Counted from the stretch's first letter, positions 9,143 through 41,677 are shown. The stretch is DNA of 64,000 nucleotides from Dehalococcoidia bacterium (GCA_030740155.1 JASLXV010000038.1:1-64000); one strand, 5' to 3'. Numbers and translations are program-made. Notes: a model not told the origin generated them from the letters alone.

Positions 9143-10147
9143 TTAGCCGGTGCGGAACGCCGGCAGTACCTCTTCGATGCAACGCTGTAGCTGGCCCTTC
9201 AGGTCGGGAGACACGAAGCGGAGCACCGGCGTGGTGCAGCCGGCGTCGATGTACGCCTGAATCTTCTCTATTACCGCCTCGGGTGGGCCATAGGCCAGCC
9301 ACAGTTCGGCCCGCTCCTGGGAGACCGCGCCGGCCCCGTAGTAGGACGATAGAAAGGTTGTCGCCTCTTTGAACGCCTGCTCCCGGTCCTCATTGATGTT
9401 GACCATGAGGTGGAGGCAGGACTCGAACTTGGACGGGTCGCGTCCCCGCTTTTCCGCGTAGTCTTGGATCTTGGCGAAACGGTCGCGGAAGGTCTCCACC
9501 GGCGTGGCATCGGTCTGCCAGCCGTCGGCGTGGGTTGCGACGCGGCGCAGAATGCGGTCCACGATGGGCTCGGCGACAATCCCAGGTTTGGGGTTGGCGG
9601 CAATCAGGATCGGCATCGGCTGCTGAACGGGCTTGGGAAGCATTTCCACGTCTTTGAACTGGTAGTACCGCCCGTCGTAGCTGACCCGGTCCTCGCCCCA
9701 GAGGCGGCGCAGGATCTTGACCCCTTCGACCAGGCGACCGACCCGCTCGGCCGAGACCACCCCCATCGCATCGAGTTCGTTGGCGAACTGGGGGCCGAAG
9801 CTTGCCGGGGCGCCGCTGCAGACGGACAGGATAGTGCGGCCGTGGGATAGAACGTCCAGGCTGGCCCATTGCAGCGCGAACAGGATCGGGTGGCGCAGCG
9901 GAAAGCTGGCCAGGCAGATTGTGCCCAGCTTGACCCGCTCGGTCCGGGCAGCGATGGCGGATAGGGTTACGATGGCCTCGACCCTGGGTTTCGAGAGCAG
10001 GTTGTCTCCAACCCAGATGCCATCGAAAAGACCCGAATCCTCCGCGGTCCGCGCGGCGTCGATAACGTCGTCCATGGTGCCCCAGTCGAAGAGCACAGCC
10101 CGGGTCGATAGGCTGACGCCGAATTTCGCCCGCATGTTTTGAGGCAT
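9143..10147 (-). CDS. LLM-class (luciferase-like) flavin/F420-dependent oxidoreductase
   Basis: LSAIAARTERVKLGT, RHPILFA..WASLDVLSHGR, PKPVQQPMPI, ADGW. Confidence 0.9.
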   Translation of the reverse strand: MPQNMRAKFGVSLSTRAVLFDWGTMDDVIDAARTAEDSGLFDGIWVGDNLLSKPRVEAIVTLSAIAARTERVKLGTICLASFPLRHPILFALQWASLDVLSHGRTILSVCSGAPASFGPQFANELDAMGVVSAERVGRLVEGVKILRRLWGEDRVSYDGRYYQFKDVEMLPKPVQQPMPILIAANPKPGIVAEPIVDRILRRVATHADGWQTDATPVETFRDRFAKIQDYAEKRGRDPSKFESCLHLMVNINEDREQAFKEATTFLSSYYGAGAVSQERAELWLAYGPPEAVIEKIQAYIDAGCTTPVLRFVSPDLKGQLQRCIEEVLPAFRTG

Positions 10148-10395: not shown

Positions 10396-11493
10396 TCAAT
10401 TGCTCCCTGGTAACGTGATTGCCTTGGTGACGGCATACCCCCCGTAGGCGCCCCAACCGGCGGAGAAGCCGACCCACCACTGGGACTCGCCGCCCACCAC
10501 GGCGACATGGATGTCATCCGGCGTCTCCACCATCGGGAGTATGGCGTCGTCGGGGAGGTTAAATGGGTTCGGCGGGTCGTCAACCGCGTGACCCCAATAG
10601 TGCTGGTCTCCGACCTGCCCGACCAGGATGCCGCTCTGCTTCAGCCACCCCACGTTGTACCCGGCGTTCTTCCAGAGCCACTCCTTCAGGGCTTCCTTGG
10701 AGTAGCCGCCCCGGTCCAGCTCTTGGGCCACCTTACCGCTGAAGGAAATGAGACACTGCCCCGCCGAGTGGAACATGTTGATGGCCACCGTGGGCAGGGA
10801 GCAAGCAAGCACCTTCAGAATGCGCTCCGCCTTGCCCGGCGCGAACAGGGGGTTTGGTGACTGGCAGGCGAAGACCGTCACCGCGTTCTGGTCCCGGTCC
10901 ATGCCGGCCCGCTCTTCGTGCAGCAGGGTCCAGGGGCTGGATTCTTCGTTCTCCGCCACGCAGAAGGAGAACTTGGCGGGGCTGCCCAGGGTGGACATGT
11001 CGGTGACGCCGGGGATACCGCCGCCGATGTTCCAAAGCACCAGCCGGACCGCCCGGCCGATGGCGGCGTTGGCGCGGGACCCGCCCCCGAAGGCCCCCTC
11101 CCGGACGTTGAAGCCCAGGTCCCGGGCGATGGGGCCGTTGACGATAACCAGGGGGGAGCAGGGGTTGGTGGTCGACTGGACGCCGTGGAGGTTGAACTCC
11201 GGCTCCAGCATTGCCTCGATGGCCGCGATGACCACCGGCACCATTTGGGGGGTGCATCCGGCCATGACGCAGTTGATGGCCACCTGCTCGATGGTGGCCA
11301 CCCCCTTTTGGGGCTCGATGACGCCGAGGGATTCCTGGGGGTCGCGGCCCAGGTAGTCGATGACGGCGCCGACCCGGTCCTCCGTGGGCGGGCAGAGGGG
11401 CAGGCCGTCGGTCCAGCCCTGGCTCAGGGCCAGCTCGAAGAACTCCCAGTAGTCGGCGATGTCCGCGGCGGGCGAAGAGTAACGGCCAGCCAT
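10396..11493 (-). CDS. Uncharacterised protein, stand-alone copy of the large domain associated with UGSC selenoproteins
   Basis: Shares motifs GWTDGLP..PPT, E.VAIN.VMAGC.P, NGPI, RANAAIGRA..L...N.GG and C.AENEE.SPW with 18644..19996, 20695..22038 and 22366..23475. Confidence 0.85.
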   Translation of the reverse strand: MAGRYSSPAADIADYWEFFELALSQGWTDGLPLCPPTEDRVGAVIDYLGRDPQESLGVIEPQKGVATIEQVAINCVMAGCTPQMVPVVIAAIEAMLEPEFNLHGVQSTTNPCSPLVIVNGPIARDLGFNVREGAFGGGSRANAAIGRAVRLVLWNIGGGIPGVTDMSTLGSPAKFSFCVAENEESSPWTLLHEERAGMDRDQNAVTVFACQSPNPLFAPGKAERILKVLACSLPTVAINMFHSAGQCLISFSGKVAQELDRGGYSKEALKEWLWKNAGYNVGWLKQSGILVGQVGDQHYWGHAVDDPPNPFNLPDDAILPMVETPDDIHVAVVGGESQWWVGFSAGWGAYGGYAVTKAITLPGSN

Positions 11494-11861
11494 CGTAGTT
11501 TGTCTCCTGAAGCAGATGGGGCGAGCTTCCCAGCTTTTCTAGGCGAAGGGAGCCGGTCGGGACGGGCGCCGGGCCCGGCAGAAGTAGCGTAGGGGGCGTG
11601 GTCAGCCCTGTCAAGTGGCGTTAGGGAGTGACGCAGGGCCTTCTAATTGTCACCCGGAGCGCCGGCGAAAGGTAGCGGCGCACCACGTCTGAGATGCCTC
11701 GCTTCGCCTAGCGTGACAGTTTGGTTCGTGGCCCGTGTACAATACTCGGGAAGCGGCTCGGGCCAGCCGGTTTCGGGCGGGTTTCAGAATTAATAGGCCC
11801 GCTCCGGAGCCTCTCGCCCGGTCGAGGACCGGGCCTATGCAACCGCAAGCGGAGGTCGGAC

Positions 11862-12465
11862 ATGCAGTTCGGATTCGTGCCACGTCGTTTGATGGGAAAT
11901 CCCGGAGACGTGGACCCTTCCCGCCCCTTCGATGAATGGATCAAAATCCTCCGATCATTGTCCCCAGCCAAGCCCACCGGTCGGCCGAGCGCGCCGGCCG
12001 CATTGCCGACGGCATCTGCATCGCCCCGCGGTGGGCCACACCGAGGTGGCGGCGCTGGCCAAGACCTTCAGGGAGGCGTACGCGGCGGTCCATCACGAGC
12101 AGCCCACCTACGTGAACGCCAGGCGCGACTTTATATTGGGTCCGGACCCGAGGGAAGCCTCGGTTCAGGCGGGACGCAACGAGCCGTACTTTCAATTCGG
12201 TCCCGGCCACCGGTACATAATTGGCGGGCTGCAAGAGTCGACGACGGTCGATCTGCACCTGGCCAAAGTGGAAGATGACGCCACGGGCTTCGCTTTTTGC
12301 GGCGCCTACCAGGACATGGCCGAGCAGTTTGCCAAAGTGCAGGATGAGGCAGGGTTGACCCACGCGACTTGCTCTTTCTACAACCTGCCCGGCAGCTTCC
12401 CGGCGCGGCTGGAGTTCCTCCAAGGCTTTGGAGAAGAGGTGATTCAGAAGCTTCGCCAGTCCTGA
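11862..12465 (+). pseudogene. Decayed LLM-class oxidoreductase (internal deletion and frameshifts)
   Basis: GGAGG RBS then MQFGFVP in one frame, AERAGRIADGICIAP in a second frame, and an LLM C-terminus (FLQGFGEEVIQKLR) in a third. Total length is only about 600 nt. Confidence 0.65.
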
Positions 12466-12783
12466 CCGGATCGGAGCCGGTCCGGTTCCCTGCCGTTCTA
12501 AAAGTGATGCCAGGTGGACGCCGAGACAGCGGCCGGCCGCTAGGGTGTACATTATCTACGGCGCCAAGCTGAAGGGACGCAGCGGGGCGCCAGAGACGCG
12601 CCGGGCGTGGACGCGATCATTGACGGGAGACTTAATCCGCGGGGTTCCCACGGGCGAAACCGGTTGGTATCCTTCATAGGGAAATCTCCGGCATCCCAAC
12701 CGCGCAACGGGTTCGCGGCCGGGGCGCCCAAGATGCCTGGCAATTGAAGACTGGGTCCCCAACTGACACTGGAGGTTACGACT

Positions 12784-14133
12784 ATCACAAGCGGCAGCGG
12801 TCCCACCTCGAAGCTATGTCGCTGGGTGTGTTCCACCCGGCACCAGGACCTGCCCGCCGAGGTGCGGGAAGAGACGTTGACCCTCCTGTACGATCAGGTG
12901 GGCTGCATGATCGCCAGCGCCACCCTGCCATCGTGCCAACCCGTGGTGGACCTGGTGGTCAAACTGGGCGGCCCCGAGGAATGCACGATCGTGGGTCACC
13001 CGGTGCGGACCTCGGTGTTGAACGCCGCCCTGGCCAACGGCGCCATCGGACACGGCGACGAGGTGGACCCCACGGGCCAACGGGGCACCGGGCACTACGC
13101 CGCCACCACGGTGCCGACGGCCCTCAGCGTCGGGCAGTACGTGGGGGCATCGGGTGAGGAGTTTGTCCGGGCCCTGGCCCTGGGGTCTGAGGTGGCCGCC
13201 CGTTGTCAGAGCGTCCTGGCGCACTACGGAACGAGAGAGCAGTTTGTCGCCAGTGTGGGCGGCACTCTCGGCGCCGCGGTTGTCGCAGGGCTGTTGCTCG
13301 GGCTGGACGCCGACGGCATGGAGCACGCCTTGGGGTTGGCCGCCTCCGGAGCCTGCGGTATTTCCTGCCATCATCTTGAGGAGTTGCACCAGATCAAGTC
13401 GCTGAACCACGGCCGGGCCGCGCAAGCGGGTGTCCTCTCCGCGCTGTTGGCCCAGCAGGGCTTCCACGGCCCGCCAGAAGTCCTGACCGTGGAAAACGGG
13501 TTCTTCGACGCTTTCCTGGGGCTGCCGTGGGCCGGCAACGATGTGGCCCAGGGGCTGGGAGAGGAGTACCTGATGCGGCAGATCGCCTACAAGCGTCACC
13601 CGGTGGGCGGCCCCGACCAGACTCCGGTGTACGCCCTCCTGGAGTTGATGAAGGCCCACAACCTGGGCGCCGATGACATCATGGAAATCCAGGTATCGGT
13701 ATCCCGTCACGCCTTCCATATCGTCATGACCAACCAACACCCATCCGTGCACATGGAGACGGTCCTCTCTCTGGCCGCGGTGTACGGAGAGGTAGCTTTC
13801 AAGCACATACACGACCCCATCTATCGCCAGGACCCTCGGTTCAAGGCCTTCCGGGAGAGGGCCCGCATCCTTATCATCCCCCGCCCGCAACCGGCCACCT
13901 TCGGAGACCGGTTGGAGATGGGTATCACGGTGCGGACCCAAGCCGGGGAGACGCTGCGGCAAGACCTCCGCTACCCCCTGATGACCGCTGAAGAGATACA
14001 ACAGAAGTTCCGAGGCCTGGTGGGAATGCGGCTCGGCGGCGACCAGGTCTCCGCCCTGGAGCGGAAACTGAAAGAGGTCGAGACGGTCGCCGACGTTGCC
14101 CCGCTAATCAACGATCTCCAAATTGGCTACTGA
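12784..14133 (+). CDS. MmgE/PrpD family protein (start uncertain)
   Basis: DLPAEVRE, NAALANGAIGHGDEVD, IKSLNHGRAA..GV.SALLAQQGFHGP, YKRHP. The frame is open upstream of GTG 12826 back to a GGAGG at 12771. Confidence 0.85.
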   Translation: MTSGSGPTSKLCRWVCSTRHQDLPAEVREETLTLLYDQVGCMIASATLPSCQPVVDLVVKLGGPEECTIVGHPVRTSVLNAALANGAIGHGDEVDPTGQRGTGHYAATTVPTALSVGQYVGASGEEFVRALALGSEVAARCQSVLAHYGTREQFVASVGGTLGAAVVAGLLLGLDADGMEHALGLAASGACGISCHHLEELHQIKSLNHGRAAQAGVLSALLAQQGFHGPPEVLTVENGFFDAFLGLPWAGNDVAQGLGEEYLMRQIAYKRHPVGGPDQTPVYALLELMKAHNLGADDIMEIQVSVSRHAFHIVMTNQHPSVHMETVLSLAAVYGEVAFKHIHDPIYRQDPRFKAFRERARILIIPRPQPATFGDRLEMGITVRTQAGETLRQDLRYPLMTAEEIQQKFRGLVGMRLGGDQVSALERKLKEVETVADVAPLINDLQIGY

Positions 14134-14196
14134 CTGCCCGGTCAATGCATTGGTGACCCTCGCCAGAGCAACCCCAGGAGAGGTTTCTTGAAGGGG

Positions 14197-14233
14197 TCTG
14201 GGGGAACTTCTTTTCCAAAAGAAGTTCCCCCAG
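14197..14233. repeat. Intergenic palindrome / possible terminator or REP
   Basis: CTGGGGGAACTTCTTTTCCAAAAGAAGTTCCCCCAG perfect long hairpin. Confidence 0.55.
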
Positions 14234-14270
14234 ATAAAGACCGTCCCAGCATCTGACACCGGAGGATAAA

Positions 14271-15620
14271 ATGGACAAGATCACCGAATACCTGAGTTCC
14301 TACGCAGCATCCCTGAAGTTCTCCGATCTACCCCCGCATGTCGTCGAGAAGACGAAGCGGGTTATGCTGGACACCCTCGGGTGTGCCCTGGGGGGCTACA
14401 CCAGCGAGCCCAGCAAGATCGCCCGGTCGATGGCGGAGGTCACCTGCGCTCGTCCGGCCACCGTCATCGGCAGCGGGCAGAAGACCACCCCCGACCTGGC
14501 TACCTTCGCCAACGGGGTGATGATCCGCTACCTGGACTTCAACGACATCGTCCTCTCCAAGCGCGGCGCCGGCCACCACAGCGACGATATCGCCGCCGTT
14601 CTGTCTCCTGTCGAGGTGGTCCACGGAAGCGGCCGGGACGCGATCACCGCTACGGTCCTCGCCTACGAGGTCAACTGCGCTTTTACCGAGCAGATCGACA
14701 TTCGGGCCGGGGGTTGGGACGCTTCGGTATTCGGTGTGATCGCCTGTGGGGTGGCGGCGGCCAAGGGCTTTGGCCTGAGCAAGGATGAGATTGCCCATAC
14801 CGTCAACCTGAGCGTGGTGCCCAATATGGGCCTCTTCCAGGCCCGCATCGGCGCGGTCTCCCATTGGAAGGGAGTGGCCATGGCCAACGCCGCCCGCAAC
14901 GGGGTCTTCGCCGCCCTCCTCGCCGCCAAGGGGATGACCGGGCCGGACCCCATATTCGAAGGCCCCGGCGGGCTCTTCAACGCAGCCACCGGTCCCTTCG
15001 GTCTGGACCCGTTCGGCGGCGACGGCCGGCCCTTCGCAATCCTGGGGGCCACACTCAAGCACTTTCCACTGGGCTCCGTGGCCCAGACGGCGGTGGAGGC
15101 GGCCATCAGAATACGTCCGAAGCTGGCGAGTCTCGATGACATCCAGGAGATCCACGTCGAGACTTCCGGCCCGATCATGTCCGGAGACCCGGAAAAGTGG
15201 GACCCTCAGACGCGAGAGGCGGCCGACCACAGCATGCCGTACAGCGTGGTGGCGGCCCTACGTTACGGTCCGGTTCAGGTCCACCACTACCTCCCCGAGT
15301 ACTTCCGAGACCCCAAGAACCTGGAGTTGATGCAGAAGGTCACGGTGGAGGTGACGGAGGAGGGACGCCGCTCTCGGCCGGACGGAAGCCTGAATGTGGT
15401 GGAGGTGGTCACCAAATCAGGGGAGCGCTACAAAGAGCGGGAGGCCTACCACCGGGGGCACCCCAAGAACCCCATGACCGACGAGGAGATGGAAGCGAAG
15501 TTCCGGTCCATGGCCCGGGTGCTGCTCAGCGAGCGGCAGGTTCAGCTGGTGTTGGAACGGCTGTGGAACTTGGAGCAGGTCGATGACCTCGGAGATGTGT
15601 TGGAGCTTCTCGCGGTGTAG
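14271..15620 (+). CDS. MmgE/PrpD family protein (2-methylcitrate dehydratase-like)
   Basis: FANGVMIRYLDFND, H.SDDI, SHWKG.A.ANAARNGVFAALLA..GMTGP, TREAADHSMPY, GHPKNP. Confidence 0.92.
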   Translation: MDKITEYLSSYAASLKFSDLPPHVVEKTKRVMLDTLGCALGGYTSEPSKIARSMAEVTCARPATVIGSGQKTTPDLATFANGVMIRYLDFNDIVLSKRGAGHHSDDIAAVLSPVEVVHGSGRDAITATVLAYEVNCAFTEQIDIRAGGWDASVFGVIACGVAAAKGFGLSKDEIAHTVNLSVVPNMGLFQARIGAVSHWKGVAMANAARNGVFAALLAAKGMTGPDPIFEGPGGLFNAATGPFGLDPFGGDGRPFAILGATLKHFPLGSVAQTAVEAAIRIRPKLASLDDIQEIHVETSGPIMSGDPEKWDPQTREAADHSMPYSVVAALRYGPVQVHHYLPEYFRDPKNLELMQKVTVEVTEEGRRSRPDGSLNVVEVVTKSGERYKEREAYHRGHPKNPMTDEEMEAKFRSMARVLLSERQVQLVLERLWNLEQVDDLGDVLELLAV

Positions 15621-15622
15621 CG

Positions 15623-15684
15623 GGTGGTTCGACAGGCTCACCACGAACGGGTGAAATCCGTTCGCCCTGAGCCTGTCGAAGGGC
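15623..15684. repeat. REP-like element (TTCGACAGGCTCA / CTGAGCCTGTCGAAG) between convergent genes
   Basis: Same family as 2664-2727. Confidence 0.75.
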
Positions 15685-15732
15685 TCAACCTCAAACCTGG
15701 CTGCTTCTCCGATGGGCCGCTTGTCGCGCCGG

Positions 15733-16944
15733 TCACAATAGGGCAATCCCCTGCTTGAACCGCGACTCCATGGCTTTCCCGATCTTCAGCCGGGCAATGG
15801 ATTGGGTCCCGCCGGCGTGGTGCAGCATCACCATCGCATCCCGCACGTACTTCTCCATGGGCAGGTCCCGCATTACGCCCACGCCCCCGAACAGTTCCAT
15901 GGCCGATAGGGTGATCTTCAGACTCGCGTCGGCGCAGAAGGCCTTGCAGGCACTGGCCAAAACCCCGTCTGGTTCCTTGTAAGAGGAGGTCCAAGCCGTC
16001 CGCCATACCAGGGTCCTCGCTGCCTGAAGGGTGATGTAGAGGTCCGCCAGGATAGTTTGCACCGCCTGGTGCTGGATAATGAACTTGCCGCCCTGGAACC
16101 GATCGTTGGCGAATTTCACGGCGGCGTCGAACGCGGCCCGCGCGACGGCCATTGTATGGGCTGAAAGCTCAACATTACTTGTGGTGCTCATATAGGTCTC
16201 CGCGGAGGCGCCTCCCGCCTTCCCGCCGAGCAGGTCTTCCGCCGGGATTTTCACGTTCTCGAAGATCAGTTCGGCCTGGGGATAGGCCCTGAAGCCAACC
16301 TTGTCGTGGGTGCGGCCGATGCTGAACCCCGGCGTGTCGCGGGGCACGATGAAGTGGCTCAGTCCCAGGGACTGGTTCACCGTGGGGTCCGTCCGGGCCT
16401 TGATGATATACAGCTTGGCCACCGGGCCATGGGCGATCAGGTGCTTCATGCCGTTCAGGACGTAGTGGTCCCCCTTTCGCTCCGCGCGGAGCATGATGCC
16501 CTGGCCCGGCGGAGGATCGTAGTAGCCCACGTTATCTGAGCCCGAATTGGGCTCGGTGTTGGCTTGGGCCAGGACGAAGGTGTCGTCCTCCACGAATTGG
16601 GGAATGTACCGCTTCTTCTGGTCCTCGGTGCCTCCCAGGTAGAGATGCCGCGAGGCCTTCCAGCATTGGCTGAAGATCTTGCAGCAGCTCATGTCGGCGT
16701 AGGCCAGTTCGTCGATCATCACCACCTGGGTGAGGAGGTTGGCCCCCACGCCCCCCCACTCGGGAGGCAACGCCATGGTGCGAAAACCCAGCTTGGACCC
16801 CTTCTTTACCATGTCCCAGGGAAAGCTCTCCCGGACATCCATCCGGTCCAGTTCCACGGCAATGGGGCGGATCTCATTCTCAGCGAAGTCGTGGGCCAGG
16901 CTTTGCAATGCCTTTTGTTCCTCGGTCAGCTCGAAATCCAACAC
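15733..16944 (-). CDS. Acyl-CoA dehydrogenase
   Basis: TEPNSGSD, LNGMKH.I, RFQGGK.IIQHQAV, ELFGGVG.MRDLPMEKYVRDA. Confidence 0.92.
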   Translation of the reverse strand: MLDFELTEEQKALQSLAHDFAENEIRPIAVELDRMDVRESFPWDMVKKGSKLGFRTMALPPEWGGVGANLLTQVVMIDELAYADMSCCKIFSQCWKASRHLYLGGTEDQKKRYIPQFVEDDTFVLAQANTEPNSGSDNVGYYDPPPGQGIMLRAERKGDHYVLNGMKHLIAHGPVAKLYIIKARTDPTVNQSLGLSHFIVPRDTPGFSIGRTHDKVGFRAYPQAELIFENVKIPAEDLLGGKAGGASAETYMSTTSNVELSAHTMAVARAAFDAAVKFANDRFQGGKFIIQHQAVQTILADLYITLQAARTLVWRTAWTSSYKEPDGVLASACKAFCADASLKITLSAMELFGGVGVMRDLPMEKYVRDAMVMLHHAGGTQSIARLKIGKAMESRFKQGIALL

Positions 16945-16990
16945 CTTTCGCCTCCCAATGATGACGTGCTCGGGAAACCGTTGCCGGGCT

Positions 16991-18055
16991 TCAGCCGGCC
17001 ATTCGCCGAAGCTCGCGGCGGATGAAGTTCCCCACCTGGGTGGTGGAGAGATTGCCCCCGAGATCGGGCGTGGTGTAGCCGGTCTTCACGGCCTCCGCCA
17101 CGGCCGACTCGACCATCATGGCCGCTTCCGCGTGCCCGGCGTGCTCCAGGAGCATACTCCCGGCGAGGATGGCGGCCATGGGATTGGCCACCTTCTTTCC
17201 AATGATGTCGGGCCCGGTGCCGTGAATCGGCTCGAAGTAGCAGAAATGACGGTTGGGGTTGAAGCAGCCCGTGGGGGACAGGCCCCGGCCACCCTGGATG
17301 GCCCCGGCGATGTCGCTAAGAATGTCCCCCGCCCGGTTCTCAGCCACGATGACCTGGAGCTGTTCCGGCGAGATCAACATCGCGTAGGCCAGGGTGTCTA
17401 CGTGGGTATGGTGCTGCTCGATCTTCGGGTACCCCTCCCCCACCTCCTGGAACGTCCGGCCCCACAGGCCGTTCGGCAGCCCCTTCTCGGCCATGTCAAT
17501 GCGGCTGTGGCCGTGCTGATGGGCGTAGTCGAAGGCGTATTCGATGATGCGGCGCACCCCTTTGGCCGTGTTGATCTCCGGCCGGATCTCCACCTCGTCG
17601 GGTGTGCCAACCTTGAGGGTGCCGGCACTGCCCGACTCATAGCCTTCGGTGTTCTCCCGGAAGACCACGAAGTCGATATCCTGTTCCGTCTTTCCTTTCA
17701 GGGGAGTCAGGCTGGCGTCCAGGAGCCGGCAGGGCCGCAGGTTGGCGTATAGGTCGAGGCGCCGGCGCAGCCCCCGCAAGACCGGGCTGGCCACTTGATC
17801 CGGAGGGACCCGGGGGTCGGTGCCTGCGGCGCCGAACAGGGCGGTGTCGAAGCGATCGGGCAGGCCGTCGATGATCTGGTCGATGTCGTCGGGGATGGCT
17901 TGGCCGGTCTTCAGGTACCGTTCGGCGCCGAAATCGAAGAACTCGAACTCAAGCCCAAGGTGGAAGAGTCTGTCGACGGCCTTGAGGACCTTCACCGCTT
18001 CCGGGACCACCTCGTTCCCGATACCGTCGCCGGGGATCACGGCAATCCTGGTCAT
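16991..18055 (-). CDS. Isocitrate/isopropylmalate/tartrate dehydrogenase family protein
   Basis: IAVIPGDGIGNEV, DLYANLRP, RENTEG, GDILSD, FEPIHG..PDI, TPDLGG. Start MTRI after a GAGG RBS. Confidence 0.9.
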   Translation of the reverse strand: MTRIAVIPGDGIGNEVVPEAVKVLKAVDRLFHLGLEFEFFDFGAERYLKTGQAIPDDIDQIIDGLPDRFDTALFGAAGTDPRVPPDQVASPVLRGLRRRLDLYANLRPCRLLDASLTPLKGKTEQDIDFVVFRENTEGYESGSAGTLKVGTPDEVEIRPEINTAKGVRRIIEYAFDYAHQHGHSRIDMAEKGLPNGLWGRTFQEVGEGYPKIEQHHTHVDTLAYAMLISPEQLQVIVAENRAGDILSDIAGAIQGGRGLSPTGCFNPNRHFCYFEPIHGTGPDIIGKKVANPMAAILAGSMLLEHAGHAEAAMMVESAVAEAVKTGYTTPDLGGNLSTTQVGNFIRRELRRMAG

Positions 18056-18134
18056 CGTTTGCCACCTCGCTTCGGTGCGCTGGGCGCTCTTGTAGCCCTC
18101 TGTATATTCTTTGGCGGCGGCCCAGTCAAGCTCC

Positions 18135-18203
18135 GATGCCCTCACCCTCGGTCCCTCTCCCGCGGGAGAGGGATGCCCTGGCGCAGCCTGGGCTGGGTGA
18201 GGG
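18135..18203. repeat. REP-like element (CCCTCACCC...CCCTCTCCC..GGGAGAGGG family), about 70 bp
   Basis: A near-identical copy lies at 33142-33211. Confidence 0.75.
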
Positions 18204-18240
18204 TGGTGGCCGGCAAGCTCCGGTCACTGAGAAGTTGATC

Positions 18241-18270
18241 TTGACACTTTGACTGAGGTGGCGGTAACCT
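18241..18270 (+). promoter_or_regulatory. Sigma70-type promoter of the first UGSC fusion gene
   Basis: TTGACA-N18-TAACCT, with the same architecture at 20062-20091. Confidence 0.55.
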
Positions 18271-18331
18271 GAGCGCGCCAGGCATCGCCACCCGTAGCCT
18301 GATCAGCATCCATTAGTGAAGGAGACCCAAC

Positions 18332-19996
18332 ATGCCCGGAGATTTTGAAGTTTTGAACCCGGTGGCCCAGCTGGCCTCGGAGCTGGGTGTGCCGCCGCCC
18401 GCTCCACAGCGGCCGCGCACCCTCGAAGGCGCCCGGGTGGGCCTGTACTGGAACCGCAAGCCGGGAGGCAACTACGCCCTGGAACGGGTGGAGCAGCGGC
18501 TCAAAGAGCGTTTTCCCGGCATGGTGACCAACTTCTTTCACGGCCGAAGGCCGATCTCCGCGGACCTCATGAACGACATCAAAGAGTCCTGCGACGTTGT
18601 GGTGGGCGCCACTGCGGATTGAGGCTCCTGCACGTCGTACCTTGTGCACGACATGATTGAGATGGAGCAAGCCGGCCTCCCCACCGTGGCCGTCACCGCC
18701 CGGGGTTTTGAGTCCGACTTCAAGGCTTCCGCCCGCGTATTCGGGTTCCCCCAGCTTCCCTTCGTGGTGATTCCGTACACCATGACCAGCCGCAGCCGCG
18801 AAGAAGCGGCCACCGATCTGGACGGAGTGTTCGACGAGTTGGCCCGGATCCTGGTCACCGAGCCTCCCCCTCCGGCCCGCACCAAGAAGGGCACAGTGGT
18901 CGCGGCGGCGCTGGAGCGGTTCAGCGGCGCCGACCGCCATGAAGGCTGGGAGAAGTTCAACGCCGACTTCTTGGACCGGGAGCTGGGCGATGGCTTTCCA
19001 CTCATCGCTCCCACACCGGGGTTGGTGGATGCCTTCCTGAAGTCGGTCAAACGAGACCCGTTGGAGGTGCTGGGGCATCTGGCGCCCGGCGACGGCGCCG
19101 CCACCGTGGAGAAGGTGGCGATCAACGCCGCCATGGCCGGATGCAAGCCGGAGCACCTCCCCATTCTGATCGCCGCCGTCGAGGCGATTACCCAAACGCC
19201 TCAGAACATCTTCCCATCCCGCACCATCGCCATCTCCACGGGGCCCCACGCGATGATGCTGGTGCTCAACGGGCCCATCATCAAACAGCTCGGCATCAAC
19301 TCGGGCCGCTGCACCCTGGGTCCGGGCAAGCTCGGCCAGGTCAACACCGCGCTGGGAAGGGCGCTGCGGCTCATTCTGATGAACGTGGGCCACTGCTATC
19401 CGGGCAGCGGAGACATGGACACCATCGGCAGCCCGCTGAAGTACAGCATGTGCGTCGCGGAGAACGAGGACCAGAACCCCTGGGAGCCCTTCCACGTGGA
19501 AAAGGGCTTCGAGAGGGAGCAGAGCACCGTCACCGTCTTCGGCACTATCGACGTCATCCACAACTCCAACTACAAGCGGGAATCCGACCAGCTCCTCATG
19601 GCCTGGGCGGCCCGGGTCTCATCGTCCGGCGCCTACCCGCCGCTGATCCCCAGCCGGTCGGAGTTTGACGATTCCCACTTCACCATGCTGATGTGCCCTG
19701 ACCATGCTCGGGTCCTGGCCCAGGACGGCCACACCAAGGCGTCCATCCGGGAGTACATCTCCCAGAACGCCAAGAGCCCGCTCAAGTACGTGCTGGCCAG
19801 CACGCTGGTGTCCCTGGACTCGTTGTCCGCGGATCTCCAGTGGATCCTGCAGCTCGACCCCGACACTCTGGTGTCCACCGCGCCGGACCCGGAAACCGTC
19901 AATCTGCTGGTGGTCGGCGGACCGACCGGGAAGAGTGATCTGGTACGGAACATTGGGGCGCCCACCATCACCAAAGAGATCTGCGGCACCGCCTAA
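18332..19996 (+). CDS. UGSC-family selenoprotein fused to a large uncharacterised domain (554 aa, Sec at residue 97)
   Basis: ORFs 18332..18622 and 18644..19996 are in one frame, separated only by TGA 18620-18622. Read-through gives ATAD-U-GSCTSYLVHDM. AAGGAG RBS at the start. Confidence 0.88.
18634..18652 (+). promoter_or_regulatory. Candidate bacterial SECIS hairpin
   Basis: GTCGT-ACCTTGTGC-ACGAC starts 11 nt after the UGA. Confidence 0.55.
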
Positions 19997-20061
19997 TCAA
20001 CGGGCGGCGGAACGGCGGGAAACGAGGCCGCCGGCCCGCTGCCCGGGCGCCAATTCGGTTC

Positions 20062-20091
20062 TTGACACCCAGAACTGCGTGGCGGTAATCT
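20062..20091 (+). promoter_or_regulatory. Sigma70-type promoter of the second UGSC fusion gene
   Basis: TTGACA-N18-TAATCT. It shares GTGGCGGTAA with the 18241 promoter. Confidence 0.55.
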
Positions 20092-20373
20092 AGCCACGGC
20101 AGGCAACGCCGCCCGTGGGAACTGTACGGCCTCTTGAACGGTCAATGGCGAGTTGATGATCGGAAGTGGTTACCGGGCCTTGAACAAGTTGCAATTCCCG
20201 GCGACGAGGGAGTGCCCCTGTATCCCCCTTTGGTAAAGGGGGATACAGGGGGATTTGGCGCATCGATCGAGCACGTCCGCCTACTCAAAGGCCATTGCTT
20301 GGAAAAGGATGGGACCCTGACGGCCGAGGCCGATTCTGAAAAACTTTCCCAGACAGAAGGAAGGAGACCTGAT

Positions 20374-22038
20374 ATGGCAGCAGATTTGGAAATTCTGGAC
20401 CCGGTGGCGCAGCTAGCCTCGGATCTTGGCGTGCCCCCGCCCGTACCGGACCGGCCGAAGTCTCTGCAAGGGCTCCGCTTGGGCCTGTACTGGAACCGTA
20501 AACCGGGGGGCAATTACGCCCTGGAGCGGGTGGCGGAGCGGCTCAAGGAGCGGTTCCCCGGCATGGAGACCCATTTCTACAACGCCCGGAGGCCCATCCC
20601 CGAGGATATGATCCGCGACATCGGCGCCGAGTGTGACGTGGTGGTCGGCGCCTCCGCCGATTGAGGGTCCTGCACGTCGTACCTTGCGCACGACATGGCT
20701 GAACTGGAGAAGACCGGACTTCCCACCGTGTCCATCGCCGCCCGAGGCTTCGAGGCAGATTTTCAAACCTCGGCCCGGGTGTTTGGAGTCCCCCAGCTTC
20801 CTTTCATCGTTATCCCCTACACGCTGACCAGCCGCAGCCGCGAGGAGACGGAAGGGGACCTGGATGCGGTTTTCGACGGCATTGCAACCGCGCTGGTCAC
20901 CGACCCGCCCAAGCCGCCCCCGGCAAGAAAGGCCAACGTTCTGCCCGCCGACCTGGAGCAGTTCGCCGGTATCGACCGCCTGGAGGGCTGGGAGAAGTTC
21001 AACCGGGATTTCATGGACCGGGGCCTGGGCGACGGGTTTCCCCTCGTCGCTCCCACGCCGCAACTTGTGGAGGCCTTCCTGAAGAACGTCACCCAAGACC
21101 CGCTTGAGGTCGTGGGTTATCTGGCGCCCGGTGAAGGCGCCGCTACCGTGGAGAAGGTGGCCATCAACGCGGCGATGGCCGGCTGCGAGCCGGAGCACCT
21201 TCCCGTTCTGATCGCCGCGGTGGAGGCCGTCACCCAGACGCCCCAGAACATCTTCCCGACCCGCACCATCGCCATGTCCACGGGTCCCCACGCCATGATG
21301 ATGCTGGTCAACGGGCCTGTCGTCCAACAGCTGGGCATCAACAGCGGCCGCTGCACCCTGGGTCCGGGCAAGCCCGGCCGGGTCAACACCGCGCTGGGGA
21401 GGGCCCTGCGTCTCATCCTGATGAACGTGGGGCATTGTTACGCGGGCAGCGGAGACATGGATACCATCGGCAGCCCGCTGAAGTACAGCATGTGCCTGGC
21501 GGAGAACGAGGGAGAGAGCCCCTGGGAGCCTTTCCACGTGGAGCGAGGCTTTCAGAAGGAACAGAGCACCGTTACCGTGTTCGGTACCCTGGATATCCTC
21601 CACAACGCCAACTACCAGCGCGATACCAGCCAGCTCCTTCTGGCCTGGGCGGCGCGGGCCTCCGCGGCCGGCGCCTACCCGCCGGTAATTCCCAGCCGGG
21701 TCGAGCGGGACGAGAACCACCTGACGATGCTGATGTGCCCGGACCATGCCCGGAACCTGGCCCAGGACGGCCACAGCAAGGCGTCAATCCGGGAGTATAT
21801 CGCAGAGAACTCCAAGAGTCCGATCAAGTACGTGCTGGCCACCGGCCGGACCTCTCTGGACTCGTTACCCAATGACCATCGGTGGATCCTGAACCTTGAC
21901 CCGGAAACCCTGGTATCGACCTACCCGCAACCCCACCTTGTCCACCTCCTGGTGGTGGGTGGACCCACCGGGAAGAGCGATATGGTCCGCAATATCGGAG
22001 CGCCCACCGACACCAGGGAGATCTGCAACATAGCCTGA
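20374..22038 (+). CDS. UGSC-family selenoprotein fusion, paralog 2 (554 aa, Sec at residue 97)
   Basis: ATG 20374 after AAGGAG. In-frame TGA 20662-20664 gives ASAD-U-GSCTSYLAHDM and continues into ORF 20695..22038. Same length and Sec position as paralog 1. Confidence 0.88.
20676..20694 (+). promoter_or_regulatory. Candidate bacterial SECIS hairpin
   Basis: GTCGT-ACCTTGCGC-ACGAC starts 11 nt after the UGA. Confidence 0.55.
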
Positions 22039-22365
22039 CCTCGGCGGTTCGAACCCAAGCCACCCGCCGGCGGCGAACGGCGTGGAAGGGCGATCCGGCA
22101 GGCAAACCGTTGTGGTGCGCCATCATCATTCGTGATGATAGCCGGCACTTGGTATCACTGTCGCGCGCCTGCCGGGCGGGTGCCGGCGCTTGCCTGACGG
22201 TGGCGCATCGACTATGATAGCAGGGGTCTGGCCGTGCCGGTATCCGTGGCTGTGAGTGCGGCCATTGGCTTGAGGACGGACAACGATTAGAGAGGATTTG
22301 GCGCGGCTCCCTCACCCTGCCGGTCCGGATGCGTACTAGCGATTAGGGTGGACAGGAGGAACACC

Positions 22366-23475
22366 ATGGCATTGAAGAACTGGAGTTCCGAGCTAATTGA
22401 CGCTGACGACCTGTCCGCCGCCATGGACATCTTCTGGGAAAAAGGCTGGACCGACGGGCTGCCGGTGGTGCCGCCCACGGAGCAGCGGGTGGCGGAGTTC
22501 TTGGACTACGTGGGAATGGAGCCCGATGAGGTGGTGTGCCGCATCGCGGACCGAAACCGGGTCATCACCGCCGAGAAGGTCGCGATCAACTCCGTCATGG
22601 CCGGGTGCCTGCCCGAATACTTTCCGGTGGTGCTCGCCGCGGTCGAATGCCTGGGGACCGACGAGTTCAAGATCAACCACATCGCCAGCACCGGCAGCTT
22701 GTGGATAATGATGGTGGTCAACGGCCCCATCGTGAAACAGATCGGTCTGAATTCTGGAATGTACTGTTTTGGCGCCGGGACCAGGGCCAACACCACTATT
22801 TCCAGAGCCGTAAGCCTGCTGCTGGCCAACTGCGCCGAGGCCAAGATGGGCGGAATTCAGCGGGGAGAGTGGGGGTATTCCGGGAGGTTCAACTGCTGTG
22901 TGGGTGAGAACGAGGATGTGGGGTGGGGACCGACCATGGCCGAGATGCAGGGATTTGACTCGTCGACGAGTACCGTGACGATCAAGGAAGTGGTGGAGGG
23001 GCGCACTCAGATAAGGTGCAACTTCACCACCGCCGACGGGCTGCTGAAGACCATGGCGGGCTTTTGGCCCCACGTGGGGGGCAAGGACCTCCTCTTCCTT
23101 CCTCCCCAATATGTAGATGTATTCAAGAAGGCCGGGGTGAGCCGCGAGGACGTCCGCCACTACCTCCGGGAGAACATCTGCCATTCGGTAGCGGAACTCA
23201 AGCGCCGCGGAGCTTACCACGACCTGGACAGCGGGGAGCTTAGCGGTGTCATGCCTGAGGTGAAGCCGGGAGACGAGAACAAACTAGTGTACCCGTTCAG
23301 CGGGAAGGGCAAGGACGCCCAACAGCTCGGCGGTCTGGGGCCCCAGGAGGCGGTGAGTGTACGCCAGCCGGACATCATCCCAATCGTGGCAGGCGGCGAC
23401 GCTGGCCTGATGGTGTACGTGGTGCCGGGCACCGATGATTGGCCGTTCATCACCAGGGAGATAAGGACACGGTAA
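22366..23475 (+). CDS. Uncharacterised protein, stand-alone large UGSC-associated domain
   Basis: GWTDGLPVVPPT, EKVAINSVMAGCLPE, NGPIVKQIGLNSG, RANTTISRA, CVGENED. AGGAGG RBS. Confidence 0.85.
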   Translation: MALKNWSSELIDADDLSAAMDIFWEKGWTDGLPVVPPTEQRVAEFLDYVGMEPDEVVCRIADRNRVITAEKVAINSVMAGCLPEYFPVVLAAVECLGTDEFKINHIASTGSLWIMMVVNGPIVKQIGLNSGMYCFGAGTRANTTISRAVSLLLANCAEAKMGGIQRGEWGYSGRFNCCVGENEDVGWGPTMAEMQGFDSSTSTVTIKEVVEGRTQIRCNFTTADGLLKTMAGFWPHVGGKDLLFLPPQYVDVFKKAGVSREDVRHYLRENICHSVAELKRRGAYHDLDSGELSGVMPEVKPGDENKLVYPFSGKGKDAQQLGGLGPQEAVSVRQPDIIPIVAGGDAGLMVYVVPGTDDWPFITREIRTR

Positions 23476-23615
23476 GCGCCCCGGTCGTTGGACTGGGGCG
23501 TTGTACGTGCGTGTTGTACGTGCGTGTTGGAAAGACAGCGAGACCCGGGCCAGCGCGGGTCCGTTTTGGGCACCGGCAGATTCGAGCCAGAATCTTTAAG
23601 CTGAAGGAGGGTGTG

Positions 23616-24152
23616 ATGGGAGTGCGATTTCTGAACCCGAGCTTGGAAGGCGACATGGGGTTTCAGGAGGCTGCCAGAGTAGCGACCCTCAACGGGAAGG
23701 TCCTTGGCATCTTGTACAACGGCCGGGCCGGGGGAGAGGTAGTGCTCAAGGAACTGTTGAACATGCTGGAAGCGAAGTACAGCCTCGAAGGGGTTGTATT
23801 CCGGACCAAACCCCACGCCTGGGTCTCCGCTCCGGAAGAGATATTCGAGGAAATGGCCAAGTCTGTGGGGGTCGCAATCACCGGGGTGGGTGATTGAGGG
23901 TCCTGCACGTCGGGCAGTGTGCTCGACGCGATTACTCTTGAGCGGCGCGGGGTTCCCAGCGCGGTCGTCGCCACCGAGAAGCTGGCCAGGACCACCGGCC
24001 GGGCAATGGCCCGAGCGCAGAGGGCGCCGGACTTCCCCATCGCCACCGTCGAGTTCCATACCGGGCTGATGACCAACCTGGACTCCATGGACGATGCGAT
24101 ACGAATGGCCAAGGAGGCCTTCCCGCAGGTAGAGAAAATCCTGGTAGAGTAA
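23616..24152 (+). CDS. Stand-alone UGSC-family selenoprotein (178 aa, Sec at residue 94)
   Basis: ATG 23616 after AAGGAGG. In-frame TGA 23895-23897 gives GVGD-U-GSCTSGSVLDAITLERRGVP and joins ORF 23919..24152. Confidence 0.88.
23908..23928 (+). promoter_or_regulatory. Candidate bacterial SECIS hairpin
   Basis: CGTCGGGCA-GTG-TGCTCGACG, a 9-bp stem with one G-U pair and a G-containing loop, 10 nt after the UGA. Confidence 0.6.
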
Positions 24153-24357: not shown

Positions 24358-25371
24358 ATGGCCACTCGCGTAGCAGCTATTGGCGTCAACCATTGGCACT
24401 CGCTGTATGACGCCTCCTACCTTGTCCACCTGTCCAAGATGGACGATATTCAGATCGTCGCTCTCCAAGACGATGATCAGGGGATCGTGGACCACCGGGT
24501 GAAGGAGCTTGGCGGCAACATCGCTACCTACACCGACTACCGGAAGATGGTGTCCGAGGTCAAACCCGATTATGTATTGGCTCTGGGCCGTCACGATATG
24601 ATGGCCGAGGTGGCGCTCTTTCTGCTGGATAGCCGCATCCCGTTCACCATGGAAAAACCAATGAGCCACAGCGCGCGGCAGTTACGTGGCGTGTTGGAGA
24701 AGGTGGAGGCGGCCAACGGATTCGCATCGGTGCCGCTGAACTTCCGGTACCAGCCCTTTCTCGGGAAAGCCAAGGAGTTGATCACGGCGGACACCTACGG
24801 CCCGTTGACCCACTTCTACATGCGGATCAACCGGCCGAGTTCGTCACGGTATTCTCCCTGGGGTGCGCCGTGGATGCTCGACCCGAAGATCGCCAACGGC
24901 GGGTGCCTGCGCAACCTCGGCGCCCACGGCCTGGACGCCTTCGCGAATCTCACCGGTGAAGGCGAGGACATTGAAGTCACCGGCGCTCAACTCAGTTGGG
25001 CCGGCCGGGCGATGAAGATAGAAGACTACGCGTCGGTCTTGATCCGGTCCAAGAGCGGTGTGCTGGGTACTATCGAGGCCGGAAACGGGTATCCCAGGGA
25101 CGGGACCGATGGCGAGTGGAAAGCGGCTTTCCGGGATGCCATCCTCACCTTCAAAGATAACGTGCTCAAGCTGAACACCGGCGACGGAGAAGAGATTTTG
25201 CCGTCGGAGATGGCCGATGCTCCGGCAGCCCTCGCGTTGCGCGATGCCATCAGCTGCGCGGCAGCGGGCCGGCCGGCGCCCATCAGCATGCGCGACTGCT
25301 ACTATGCCGTGCGCCTCATCGATATGGGCTACATCGCGGCCGGCAACCCCTACGGAACGGCGGCAGTCTAG
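24358..25371 (+). CDS. Gfo/Idh/MocA family oxidoreductase
   Basis: N-terminal Rossmann fold, MEKPM, GGCLRNLGAHGLD, EDYA. Confidence 0.88.
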   Translation: MATRVAAIGVNHWHSLYDASYLVHLSKMDDIQIVALQDDDQGIVDHRVKELGGNIATYTDYRKMVSEVKPDYVLALGRHDMMAEVALFLLDSRIPFTMEKPMSHSARQLRGVLEKVEAANGFASVPLNFRYQPFLGKAKELITADTYGPLTHFYMRINRPSSSRYSPWGAPWMLDPKIANGGCLRNLGAHGLDAFANLTGEGEDIEVTGAQLSWAGRAMKIEDYASVLIRSKSGVLGTIEAGNGYPRDGTDGEWKAAFRDAILTFKDNVLKLNTGDGEEILPSEMADAPAALALRDAISCAAAGRPAPISMRDCYYAVRLIDMGYIAAGNPYGTAAV

Positions 25372-25424
25372 CGCGCACCTTCCGCCGCCCGTAAAATTAC
25401 GCTTTCGAAGCAGGAGGTCAATTC

Positions 25425-26798
25425 ATGTCAACTAGAGAGACAATCCGCGAACCGGCGAAAGATATTCCAGTTTTTCGCCGTTGCAACGTTTTGGTGGTCG
25501 GAGGCGGCCCCGCCGGCAGCGCCGCTGCGGTTTCCGCGGCAAAACTGGGCGCCGACACCATCCTGGTCGAGCGATACGGCCACTTAGGTGGAATGTCCAC
25601 CGGGGGCTTTGTCAGCTACATCGTGCCGATGACCGACTGGACCGGCCGCCAGGTAATTGCCGGCTTCGCCAACGAGATCTTCGACCGGCTGCCAAAGAGC
25701 GCGGTGGTTGGGCCGCCCGATGAGCTATGGGGTTCAAGAGACCCGGATTTAGTCCGGTACTGGGGCGACCGCCACAACGCCAAACACGGCATAATCACCT
25801 GGTCGCCCACCGTGGACCCCGAGATGCTCAAGATCGTGTCCAACGACATGGTACTGGAGCAGGGCGTAAAGCTGCTGCTTCACTCCTGGGCAGTGGCCCC
25901 GATTCAGGAGGGGAACGACATCAAGGGAATCGTCTTCGAGAGCAAGTCGGGACGCCAGGCCATCCTCGCCGATGTGGTGGTTGACGCCACGGGCGACGGC
26001 GATATCTTTCACATGGCCGGCTCTCCCTGGGAGTCGGATATTCAGGACGACGACATCCATCATACGATCAACGTGGCGTTCCACTTGGGCGGAGTCGACA
26101 TGGAGAAATTCTATGCGTTCCGCGGCGATCAGCCGGAAGAATTCCGGTCGATGATGGCCAAGATGAAGGCGGCCGGTATTGCCGCCGACGCCACGCCCCA
26201 CGCGTTGCCGCGCAACGACACGGTCCTGTTCATGGGGCCAAGACTGAAGGGGTACAGCGCCATCGACGTGGAAGACCTGACTCAGGTAGAGATCCAGTCA
26301 CGCAAGGACATGTTGCAGGTGCTGGAGTTCTACAGGGGTAACGCACCCGGCTTCGATGGTGCTTGGCTCATGGTCTCAGCGCCACAGATGGGCACCCGGC
26401 ACAGCCGCAGGCTGACGGGCATGAAGACAGTAACCCGGGAAATGTGGACCAGTGGTACCCTGCACGAGGACGAGATCGCCATCTCGCCGCCGCCCAATAC
26501 CCGCAACCCCAATGTGTCCATTCCTCTGGGGTGTCTGATCCCTCCGAGCTTGAACAACATCCTGGCCGCCGGTAGGAACCTCTCCTGCGACCCCACGACG
26601 CACACCTTCCTGCGGCTGGTTCCCCAGTGCTGGACCATGGGTCAAGCCGCCGGCGTGGCCGCGGCGGTAGCCGTGAATTCAGGCGTGCCGGTGCGCGACG
26701 TTGATGTGAAGCAGGTGAAGGGGGAGCTGGTAAAGCAGGGCGTGGTCTTGCACGGTGAGGCGGGAGGCCCGAAGAGCCCAAACCAGCCCCTGGAATAG
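25425..26798 (+). CDS. FAD-dependent oxidoreductase
   Basis: VLVVGGGPAG.AAA..AA, ERYGHLGGMST.G, VDATGDGD, IPLGCLIP....NILAAGR.LS. Confidence 0.9.
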   Translation: MSTRETIREPAKDIPVFRRCNVLVVGGGPAGSAAAVSAAKLGADTILVERYGHLGGMSTGGFVSYIVPMTDWTGRQVIAGFANEIFDRLPKSAVVGPPDELWGSRDPDLVRYWGDRHNAKHGIITWSPTVDPEMLKIVSNDMVLEQGVKLLLHSWAVAPIQEGNDIKGIVFESKSGRQAILADVVVDATGDGDIFHMAGSPWESDIQDDDIHHTINVAFHLGGVDMEKFYAFRGDQPEEFRSMMAKMKAAGIAADATPHALPRNDTVLFMGPRLKGYSAIDVEDLTQVEIQSRKDMLQVLEFYRGNAPGFDGAWLMVSAPQMGTRHSRRLTGMKTVTREMWTSGTLHEDEIAISPPPNTRNPNVSIPLGCLIPPSLNNILAAGRNLSCDPTTHTFLRLVPQCWTMGQAAGVAAAVAVNSGVPVRDVDVKQVKGELVKQGVVLHGEAGGPKSPNQPLE

Positions 26799-27401: not shown

Positions 27402-27539
27402 TTATGAAGACGCAACACAGAGGGGCGTTAACCGGGACCGGGTGCCCGGCGCCAGAACCTTCTGGCTGTCCGGAAGCCCGGCCCGCTCTCCCGTTGGCAG
27501 AGCTGAAACCACGGGAATTTCAACAATAGAGGGGAAACC

Positions 27540-41595: not shown

Positions 41596-41611
41596 GCTTG
41601 GGATAAACTTG

Positions 41612-41639
41612 AGCTTCTCTCCTATGAGAAGCTTTTTTT
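41612..41639 (+). terminator. Intrinsic terminator (riboswitch expression platform)
   Basis: AGCTTCTC-TCCTAT-GAGAAGCT followed by a T-run. Confidence 0.85.
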
Positions 41640-41677
41640 GGTGGGCGGAACTGGCCGGCCTGGGGGAGAGACCGTTG

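Follow-up and report, generated by a model that had tools for sequence, protein, structure and literature searches.

UGSC selenoproteins and their large partner domain in a Dehalococcoidia bacterium: a putative two-module oxidoreductase linked to thioredoxin reductase

A 64,000-nucleotide stretch of DNA from a Dehalococcoidia bacterium (GCA_030740155.1, JASLXV010000038.1:1-64000), called the window below, carries four copies of a large domain, of which two are fused to a UGSC selenoprotein domain, one is encoded beside a separate UGSC gene and one stands alone. These genes probably encode four copies of a two-module thiol/selenol oxidoreductase that would be recycled by thioredoxin reductase (TrxB). 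Practically without exception, the UGSC protein is half of a putative two-part enzyme, the other half of which is also found fused to thioredoxin reductase or to a domain of the ferredoxin:thioredoxin reductase (FTR) type. An earlier reading of the window (the original prediction) had proposed an obligate partnership between a selenocysteine (Sec) module and a large subunit; this partnership is supported, and a mechanism can be proposed from the sequences. Taken together, the co-occurrence of the modules, the reductase fusions and the natural all-cysteine versions make an old question testable.

The two modules and their partnership

Two of the four copies are fusions arranged in tandem, fusion 1 (18332..19996, +) and fusion 2 (20374..22038, +), both of 554 residues and 74% identical to each other. 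In fusion 1, the UGSC domain (about 18332-18865) precedes the large domain (about 18941-19981, the 'Unknown_1' domain of the literature), and profiles that we built for the two domains match at E 7.5e-62 and E 8.1e-124, respectively. Both fusions, as predicted, are real open reading frames (ORFs) made of a UGSC and a large part, each with one internal TGA (18620-18622 and 20662-20664, corresponding to U97 in both) and no other stop. The third copy belongs to a split pair in which the order is reversed, another point on which the original prediction proved right: a large-only gene (22366..23475, +; 369 residues from the ATG, with an alternative GTG start at 22348; large-profile match E 8.5e-89) is followed 140 nucleotides (nt) downstream by a stand-alone UGSC selenoprotein gene (23616..24152, +; 178 residues; U94, TGA 23895-23897), which matches the UGSC family of Pfam. 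The fourth copy (10396..11493, -; 365 residues) has a luciferase-like monooxygenase gene 248 nt downstream of it (9143..10147, -) and is indeed an orphan, a search of positions 9001-13000 with our UGSC profile at maximum sensitivity having found no remnant better than E 0.85. The stand-alone and orphan large domains are 32% and 34% identical to fusion 1, and the paralogues share only 31-34% identity, which suggests that they act on different substrates.

All four large domains contain the MAGC.P, (V/L)NGP and ENE motifs that had been noticed in them. Two longer signatures hold in part: AINAxMAGC is exact in the two fusions but reads AINSVMAGC and AINCVMAGC in the other two copies, while GxxDGxP..PT describes the stand-alone copies (GWTDGLP..PPT) and only DGFP...PT is kept in the fusions. 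The three UGSC genes are members of the family PF24696 by Pfam (172 model positions, gathering cut-off 25 bits): residues 7-175 of fusions 1 and 2 match at E 3.9e-35 and 2e-34 (122 and 119.6 bits; model positions 2-171 and 2-170), and the stand-alone protein at E 3.8e-37 (128.5 bits; positions 15-171). They lie under the NCBI equivalog threshold, the scores against NF041046 ('UGSC family (seleno)protein') being 101.3 and 102.9 bits for the fusions and 95.5 bits for the stand-alone protein, with a cut-off of 125 bits. The large domain (fusion residues about 200-554) has no Pfam or NCBIfam match.

The fusion itself is not new: the pairing was described as early as 2008, although the family is still uncharacterised. 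A 2007 paper called UGSC 'a selenoprotein of unknown function'; Zhang and Gladyshev (PLoS Genet 2008, PMC2398784) then counted the 'UGSC-containing protein' as one of the selenoprotein families best represented in the Global Ocean Sampling data, and UGSC proteins are among the commonest selenoproteins of ocean and freshwater metagenomes (PMC2398784). A 'UGSC/Unknown_1 fusion' is depicted there without function (Fig. S1A), and the block AVNGVMAGCRPEYMP...VNGP of that figure corresponds to the large domain of the window. Indeed, when read by eye, the Unknown_1 block A(V/I)N.VMAGC.PEY.P...VNGP is matched by AINAAMAGCKPEHLP...LNGP and by equivalents in all four copies. The published fusion and those of the window thus share a Sec encoded by TGA in the UGSC motif and the same partner domain; the window adds a reverse-order split pair, a tandem duplicate and an orphan large domain. 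In the accessible portions of the literature on UGSC selenoproteins no function is assigned: UGSC still lacks one in reviews of 2022 and 2026, the second of which places it among selenoproteins whose functions 'remain largely uncharacterized'. The available text and supplement page of PMC2398784 mention neither links to TrxB or FTR nor a near-universal co-occurrence, and no paper linking the UGSC family to thioredoxin reductase was found among the best literature matches. What is new here is this near-universal co-occurrence in both directions, the repeated fusion and fission, and the covalent and operonic links to TrxB and FTR-like domains, to which structure prediction adds a putatively flavodoxin-like Sec module and a partner module apparently without structural relative.

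The partnership was examined in 106 copies of the large domain, found in 89 fetched loci and the window. One sample comes from a search of a single genome for each species, in which the family alignment was the query and the best 80 of 573 relatives, in 77 loci, were kept; a less biased sample was obtained with the orphan large domain as tblastn query against a plasmid collection (24 records, 12 fetched). A UGSC domain is fused to the large domain or adjacent on the same strand for 105 of the 106 copies, which comprise 66 UGSC-large fusions, 27 split pairs in the same order, 11 large-UGSC split pairs and 1 large-UGSC fusion; the single orphan is that of the window. According to our own profile, UGSC is fused or adjacent in all 12 plasmid loci, and half of these records (6/12) themselves annotate a neighbouring 'UGSC family (seleno)protein'. 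The reverse query, with the stand-alone UGSC, retrieved 16 plasmid records, all of them within the 24, and each of the 16 matches lies at most 250 nt from a large-domain match. A rough neighbour-joining tree calls for about 15 switches between the fused and the split state, against a mean of 32 and a minimum of 25 in 500 shuffles of the labels, and for about 11 switches of gene order. The two modules have therefore been repeatedly joined, separated and swapped, yet kept together, in bacteria and archaea alike, and these counts and this switching bear out the predicted partnership of a Sec redox module with divergent large subunits.

An exhaustive search of representative proteins with fusion 1 gave 4724 matches at E <=1e-3. 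Among the best 150 of these are full-length fusions, many of them with CGSC, many proteins of 440-460 residues that start just past the Sec and correspond to fusions cut by gene callers, and large-to-UGSC fusions cut at the Sec codon.

Other arrangements were also met. Tandem large-large fusions occur (P0168, P0181, P0185, P0226, about 715 residues, and P0277, 861 residues), one of which is composed of a UGSC and two large domains, and a large-UGSC-large gene trio is found in Halalkalicoccus jeotgali (locus L088, 5992-8640). From these fusions and this trio, one UGSC may serve two large modules, or the large module may dimerise. Furthermore, a gene of the DUF6282 family recurs with the pair in 5 loci (L062, 3013-3864; L069, 1061-1921; L080, 7062-7913; L085, 7021-7854; L049, about 13577-14407); in two of them, the Dehalococcoidia loci L062 and L069, it sits between the UGSC and large genes, and its product may be a third component in some lineages.

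Selenocysteine codons and predicted structure

Each of the three UGSC genes contains a single in-frame TGA, within D-U-G-S-C-T-S, and the similarity of their products to Cys-type homologues crosses it in frame. In the 77 related loci and the window, TGA is found at the motif in 85 of 94 UGSC domains and a Cys codon in 4, the stretch found for the other 5 having no recognisable motif; in an alignment of 82 UGSC sequences, the Sec/Cys column is invariant, and the glycine at +1 and the cysteine at +3 are at least 90% conserved. The TGA of fusion 1 is followed by a hairpin resembling a selenocysteine insertion sequence (SECIS) at 18634..18652 (+), i.e. nt 15-33 counted from the U of UGA, with equivalents at 20676-20694 (+) in fusion 2 and 23909-23927 (+) in the stand-alone gene, which retains the stem through compensatory changes. 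Of 90 Sec-type UGSC genes, 70 can form at least 6 of the 7 base pairs of the stem, versus only 0-3 when its 3' arm is slid by 1-3 nt. As the hairpin overlaps the conserved S-W-x-x-H-D codons, part of this signal reflects protein constraint, and the stem is not fully independent evidence. No SECIS match at Rfam gathering scores was found in the window.

Cys forms with a CGSC motif are present in haloarchaeal plasmid loci, and natural all-cysteine versions are found in cultivable Arthrobacter, Paracoccus, Variovorax and haloarchaea. The existence of Cys forms implies that the chemistry is of a thiol/selenol type, not selenium-specific.

The annotation of these genes is affected by their Sec codon, at which they are routinely cut by gene callers. 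Dozens of representative relatives, of 410-470 residues, begin at a residue aligned to fusion positions 102-120, and a homologue search with UGSC alone returned merely 2 matches because Sec genes are cut. Since gene callers restart after the TGA, both the UGSC domain and the fusion are systematically under-represented in public protein sets. No gene interrupted by a TGA, other than the three UGSC genes, was found in those parts of the window that were read. A redoxin/AhpC-TSA gene (27241..28173, +) with CPPC and a DUF3179 gene (29735..30763, +) with CPLC are both Cys forms; DUF3179 appears in a review table as a family with Sec forms elsewhere.

The model of fusion 1, based on a 143-sequence alignment, has a mean predicted local distance difference test score (pLDDT) of 94.8 and a predicted template modelling score (pTM) of 0.94, and the fusion is predicted with confidence to be a compact two-domain body. 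In this model, strand 89-95 is directly followed by the Sec, where helix 98-113 starts, and Cys271, the cysteine of MAGC, lies between helices 259-268 and 273-288, at a helix N-terminus. The UGSC-sized Foldseek matches in the PDB (about 150-230 aligned columns) are mostly flavodoxin-like, with E 1.3e-4 to 3e-3; the best is the flavodoxin core of a flavorubredoxin (E 1.3e-4), and others are MsuE, flavodoxin and azoreductases. These matches are weak, the template modelling (TM) score normalised to the target being 0.26-0.50 and the identity 10-16%. No thioredoxin is present among the 45 fold matches listed for the predicted model at E <=3e-3. The UGSC domain is thus predicted to be flavodoxin-like and not to adopt the 'likely Trx-like fold' suggested in PMC2398784. 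Flavodoxin, the flavin mononucleotide (FMN) reductase MsuE and azoreductases are its closest structural matches, a likeness that comes from weak matches of a predicted model, and it differs from them by its U-x-x-C redox centre.

The model of the large domain alone (split copy 22366..23475; pLDDT 87.6, pTM 0.89) has no fold match in the PDB at E <=1e-3, no PDB sequence matches the profile of the large family at E <=10, and its matches in the ESM Atlas are all 'hypothetical' or automatically named clusters. The large module is therefore without solved relative within reach of the sequence and fold searches used. The original prediction would have been contradicted by a large domain that is a characterised enzyme working independently; Pfam, NCBIfam and the PDB sequence and fold searches map it to none. 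Asp220, Arg343 and Glu377 are present in all 106 copies, and the large module may supply a charged pocket.

Three candidate relatives of the large domain were rejected. The best fold match, the class I fumarate hydratase 7xky_A (E 1.6e-2, probability 0.28, TM 0.20-0.24), and the 'Toblerone-fold' amide hydrolases (probability <=0.16) are unreliable. A match of the thioredoxin reductase 4jnq_A to residues 51-145 of the orphan large domain (E 8.3e-4) was treated as due to chance because the family profile gave no match at E <=10.

Reductase links, proposed mechanism and alternatives

The large domain is covalently linked to two kinds of reductase. A Pyr_redox_2 domain of TrxB type is fused to it in 9 of 48 long relatives, 7 in large-to-TrxB and 2 in TrxB-to-large order, and some sources label such proteins 'thioredoxin reductase'. 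In 2 other proteins, the catalytic domain of FTR (PF02943, FeThRed_B, E 1e-16) is C-terminal to the large domain, either alone (P0253) or in a UGSC + large + FeThRed_B arrangement (P0217). Gene neighbourhoods show similar links: trxB-trxA-large-UGSC in Arthrobacter sp. ERGS1:01 (plasmid NZ_CP012477), large-UGSC-trxB in Roseovarius, trxB followed further on by SDR-large-UGSC (SDR, short-chain dehydrogenase/reductase) in Variovorax, UGSC-large followed by a TrxB-like flavoprotein in Haloterrigena and, in locus L011, a TrxB-thioredoxin fusion protein encoded just upstream of the fusion gene. The redox role initially proposed is strengthened by these fusions and by the trxB and trxA neighbours.

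The electron path, the chemistry and the substrates that we infer would be as follows. Module 1 (UGSC, about 175 residues) would be a flavodoxin-like alpha/beta domain whose U-G-S-C redox pair is located at the junction of a beta strand with the helix that begins after it; module 2 ('Unknown_1', about 350 residues) would be the catalytic or substrate-binding part, and both would act as a fixed 1:1 complex, whether fused or encoded side by side. The selenolate, aided by Cys271 in most members, would attack a small-molecule substrate held in the large module, and the intermediate would be resolved into a Se-S bond with Cys100. This bond could then be re-reduced by a flavoprotein of the thioredoxin reductase type, which may or may not act through thioredoxin; in some lineages an FTR-like iron-sulfur domain would do so instead. 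Electrons would thus pass from NAD(P)H through TrxB (with or without thioredoxin), or from ferredoxin through FTR, to the U/C-x-x-C pair and to the substrate, which would undergo a net two-electron reduction driven by NAD(P)H or ferredoxin. The substrates are probably organic acids or coenzyme A (CoA) esters from the catabolic clusters in which the genes lie. Loci L003, L027, L040 and L066 and the window contain 3-4 divergent copies in tandem, an arrangement that fits a family of substrate-specific enzymes.

Several observations weigh against the oxidoreductase proposed here or against a strict partnership. The genome-scan sample favours fused forms, its members having been ranked by how closely they resemble a fusion; the orphan has at least 6664 close relatives, nearly all of about 360 residues and unnamed, and given these relatives, which lie outside the neighbour count, stand-alone large domains may be common. 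A TrxB-like gene is present in merely 11 of the 89 loci, and the window has none at >=50% coverage and E <=1e-10. As for Sec insertion, no tRNA gene was found in the 64-kb window, and the selA, selB and selD families are absent among the 45 ORFs scanned. The neighbours are heterogeneous and include no conserved metabolic partner, according to a Pfam survey of the first 145 of the 334 neighbour ORFs and a comparison of the 89 loci. The cysteines of the large module vary: Cys271 is Cys in 86 of the 106 copies and Ala in 20, Cys374 is Cys in 88 and replaced in 18, and both are missing from a clade of Desulfatiglans-like and Thermodesulfobacteriota genomes, which nonetheless keeps a Sec-type UGSC. 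These cysteines are therefore auxiliary and not essential, a relay from Sec to the MAGC cysteine cannot be the whole mechanism, and the redox pair proper would be U-x-x-C.

Other explanations of the same genes were considered. Glycine and D-proline reductases (GrdA/GrdB/GrdE; PrdA/PrdB) also combine Sec-bearing and substrate-binding components, and their oxidised Se-S form is recycled by thioredoxin and thioredoxin reductase, which are often encoded in the same operon, an organisation resembled by the trxB-trxA-large-UGSC order. By analogy, the large module could be a proenzyme that self-cleaves at MAG|C to form a pyruvoyl group (cf. GrdE, PrdA) and binds an amine, the C-N bond of which would be cleaved reductively by the Sec module (cf. 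GrdA, GrdB, PrdB) with thioredoxin recycling. The Gly-Cys junction does lie at a helix turn, and in a Dehalococcoidia genome a gene of the GRDB family (PF07355, E 4e-111; L008, 8378-9439, -) is divergent from a UGSC-large fusion. Moreover, a UxxC Sec motif is common to PrdB, according to a table of PMC2398784. Such a mechanism nevertheless appears distinctly unlikely: that GRDB gene is the only one beside a locus among those scanned, the UGSC domains match PF24696 alone at E <=10, without GRDB or GRDA (HMMER filters dropping most matches above E ~0.1), the large domain matches no Pfam family, no protein C-like partner was seen and the candidate pyruvoyl-forming cysteine is not conserved, which weakens the pyruvoyl idea. 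Indeed, an Ala cannot yield pyruvoyl, and the 20 copies in which it replaces Cys271 are all associated with a Sec-type UGSC where the motif was seen. A general antioxidant or repair enzyme, in the style of peroxiredoxins, methionine-sulfoxide reductases or arsenate reductases, would also use Sec to attack an oxidant or a biomolecule that has been oxidised, and thioredoxin for recycling, with the large module as a scaffold or specificity domain. It would account for the links with TrxB, thioredoxin and FTR, and a nucleophile placed where a strand meets a helix in a flavodoxin-like domain is reminiscent of arsenate reductases of the low-molecular-weight phosphatase type. Thioredoxin-dependent reductases such as MsrA/B, peroxiredoxins and ArsC likewise combine a nucleophilic Sec or Cys with a resolving Cys, the two nucleophiles being interchangeable between lineages. 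We consider this role unlikely: the UGSC/large proteins have no homology with these enzymes (no Prx, Msr or ArsC family match) and possess a dedicated partner of 350 residues, whose invariant Asp/Arg/Glu triad suggests a defined small, probably anionic, substrate, and arrays of up to four divergent tandem paralogues in catabolic clusters (the window and the four loci cited above) fit substrate diversification better.

The module could also belong to a non-redox enzyme (isomerase, lyase or transferase), in which Sec or Cys would be a covalent nucleophile just kept reduced by the thioredoxin system. There are thiol enzymes whose nucleophilic Cys works without net input of reductant, 78 of the 89 loci have no TrxB nearby, and the context includes MmgE/PrpD, CoA-transferase III and genes of the phosphoenolpyruvate (PEP)-mutase/isocitrate-lyase family. 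Mere maintenance is, however, hard to square with independent large-TrxB fusions in both orders and with the FTR fusions, and the conserved vicinal U/C-x-x-C pair is a redox signature, so that this explanation seems very unlikely. Lastly, translation might really end at the TGAs, in which case each 'fusion' would be two separate genes, the first of them short; gene callers split them in this way, and many relatives of 440-460 residues begin just past the Sec position. This has almost no chance of being correct, in view of the similarity in frame across the TGA in all three genes, the full-length CGSC homologues, the position of the TGA exactly at the invariant Cys column in 85 of 94 domains, the hairpin that follows it and the treatment of the family as selenoproteins by NCBI and Pfam.

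A broader proposal can be made, more tentatively: these proteins may form a new class of TrxB-driven selenoenzymes, the catalytic subunit of which, with a fold that has no solved relative, would have diversified into many paralogues of differing substrate specificity, acting as reductases of small organic molecules in the carbon-degradation clusters of Chloroflexota, Betaproteobacteria, Rokubacteria-like bacteria and haloarchaea.

Genomic surroundings

The catabolic neighbours listed in the original prediction were all recognised by Pfam. Besides the luciferase-like monooxygenase next to the orphan, they are two MmgE/PrpD genes (12826..14133 and 14271..15620), an acyl-CoA dehydrogenase (15733..16944, -), an Iso_dh gene (16991..18145, -), a GFO/IDH/MocA-type gene (24358..25371, +) and an FAD_oxidored gene (PF12831; 25425..26798, +). 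The co-directional genes at 24358..26798 may share an operon with the split pair, the flavoprotein being a candidate electron donor; an FAD oxidoreductase that is 31% identical to it lies directly 3' of a fusion gene on a Sporomusa termitida plasmid, the only such case among the 89 other loci. In these loci, the neighbours vary and include CoA-transferase III (16/89), MmgE/PrpD (about 10), acyl-CoA dehydrogenases, GMC oxidoreductases and sulfatases, and binding proteins of the TctC type are found near the pair in Betaproteobacteria. Just 2 of the 12 plasmid loci, from Arthrobacter (L079, 3725-4513) and Natrinema zhouii (L085, 2853-3320), have a gene annotated as phosphosulfolactate synthase in the vicinity of the pair, a possible hint at sulfonate chemistry.

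In the window, the orphan is separated from the first MmgE/PrpD gene by about 1.3 kb (11494-12825), a stretch that contains just two overlapping ORFs without Pfam match, 11932..12465 (+) and 11941..12552 (-), the latter of which reads like non-coding sequence. Further downstream, an S-adenosylmethionine (SAM, S-box) riboswitch (RF00162, 67 bits; 41459-41594, +) is located ahead of a run of genes on the + strand (41543..46590) that encode an MtnA-like protein of the IF-2B family, a PNP_UDP_1 phosphorylase, a rhodanese, an S-adenosylhomocysteine hydrolase and a SAM synthetase; this run looks like a methionine-salvage/SAM-cycle operon under SAM control. A cluster that includes ribosomal-protein genes, rpoA, secY, adk and map (50147-62477, -) marks the window as part of a chromosome. 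Elsewhere, it is rich in paralogous acyl-CoA dehydrogenases (5), MmgE/PrpD genes (3) and enoyl-CoA hydratases (2), together with hydantoinase A/B genes and a sulfatase fragment.

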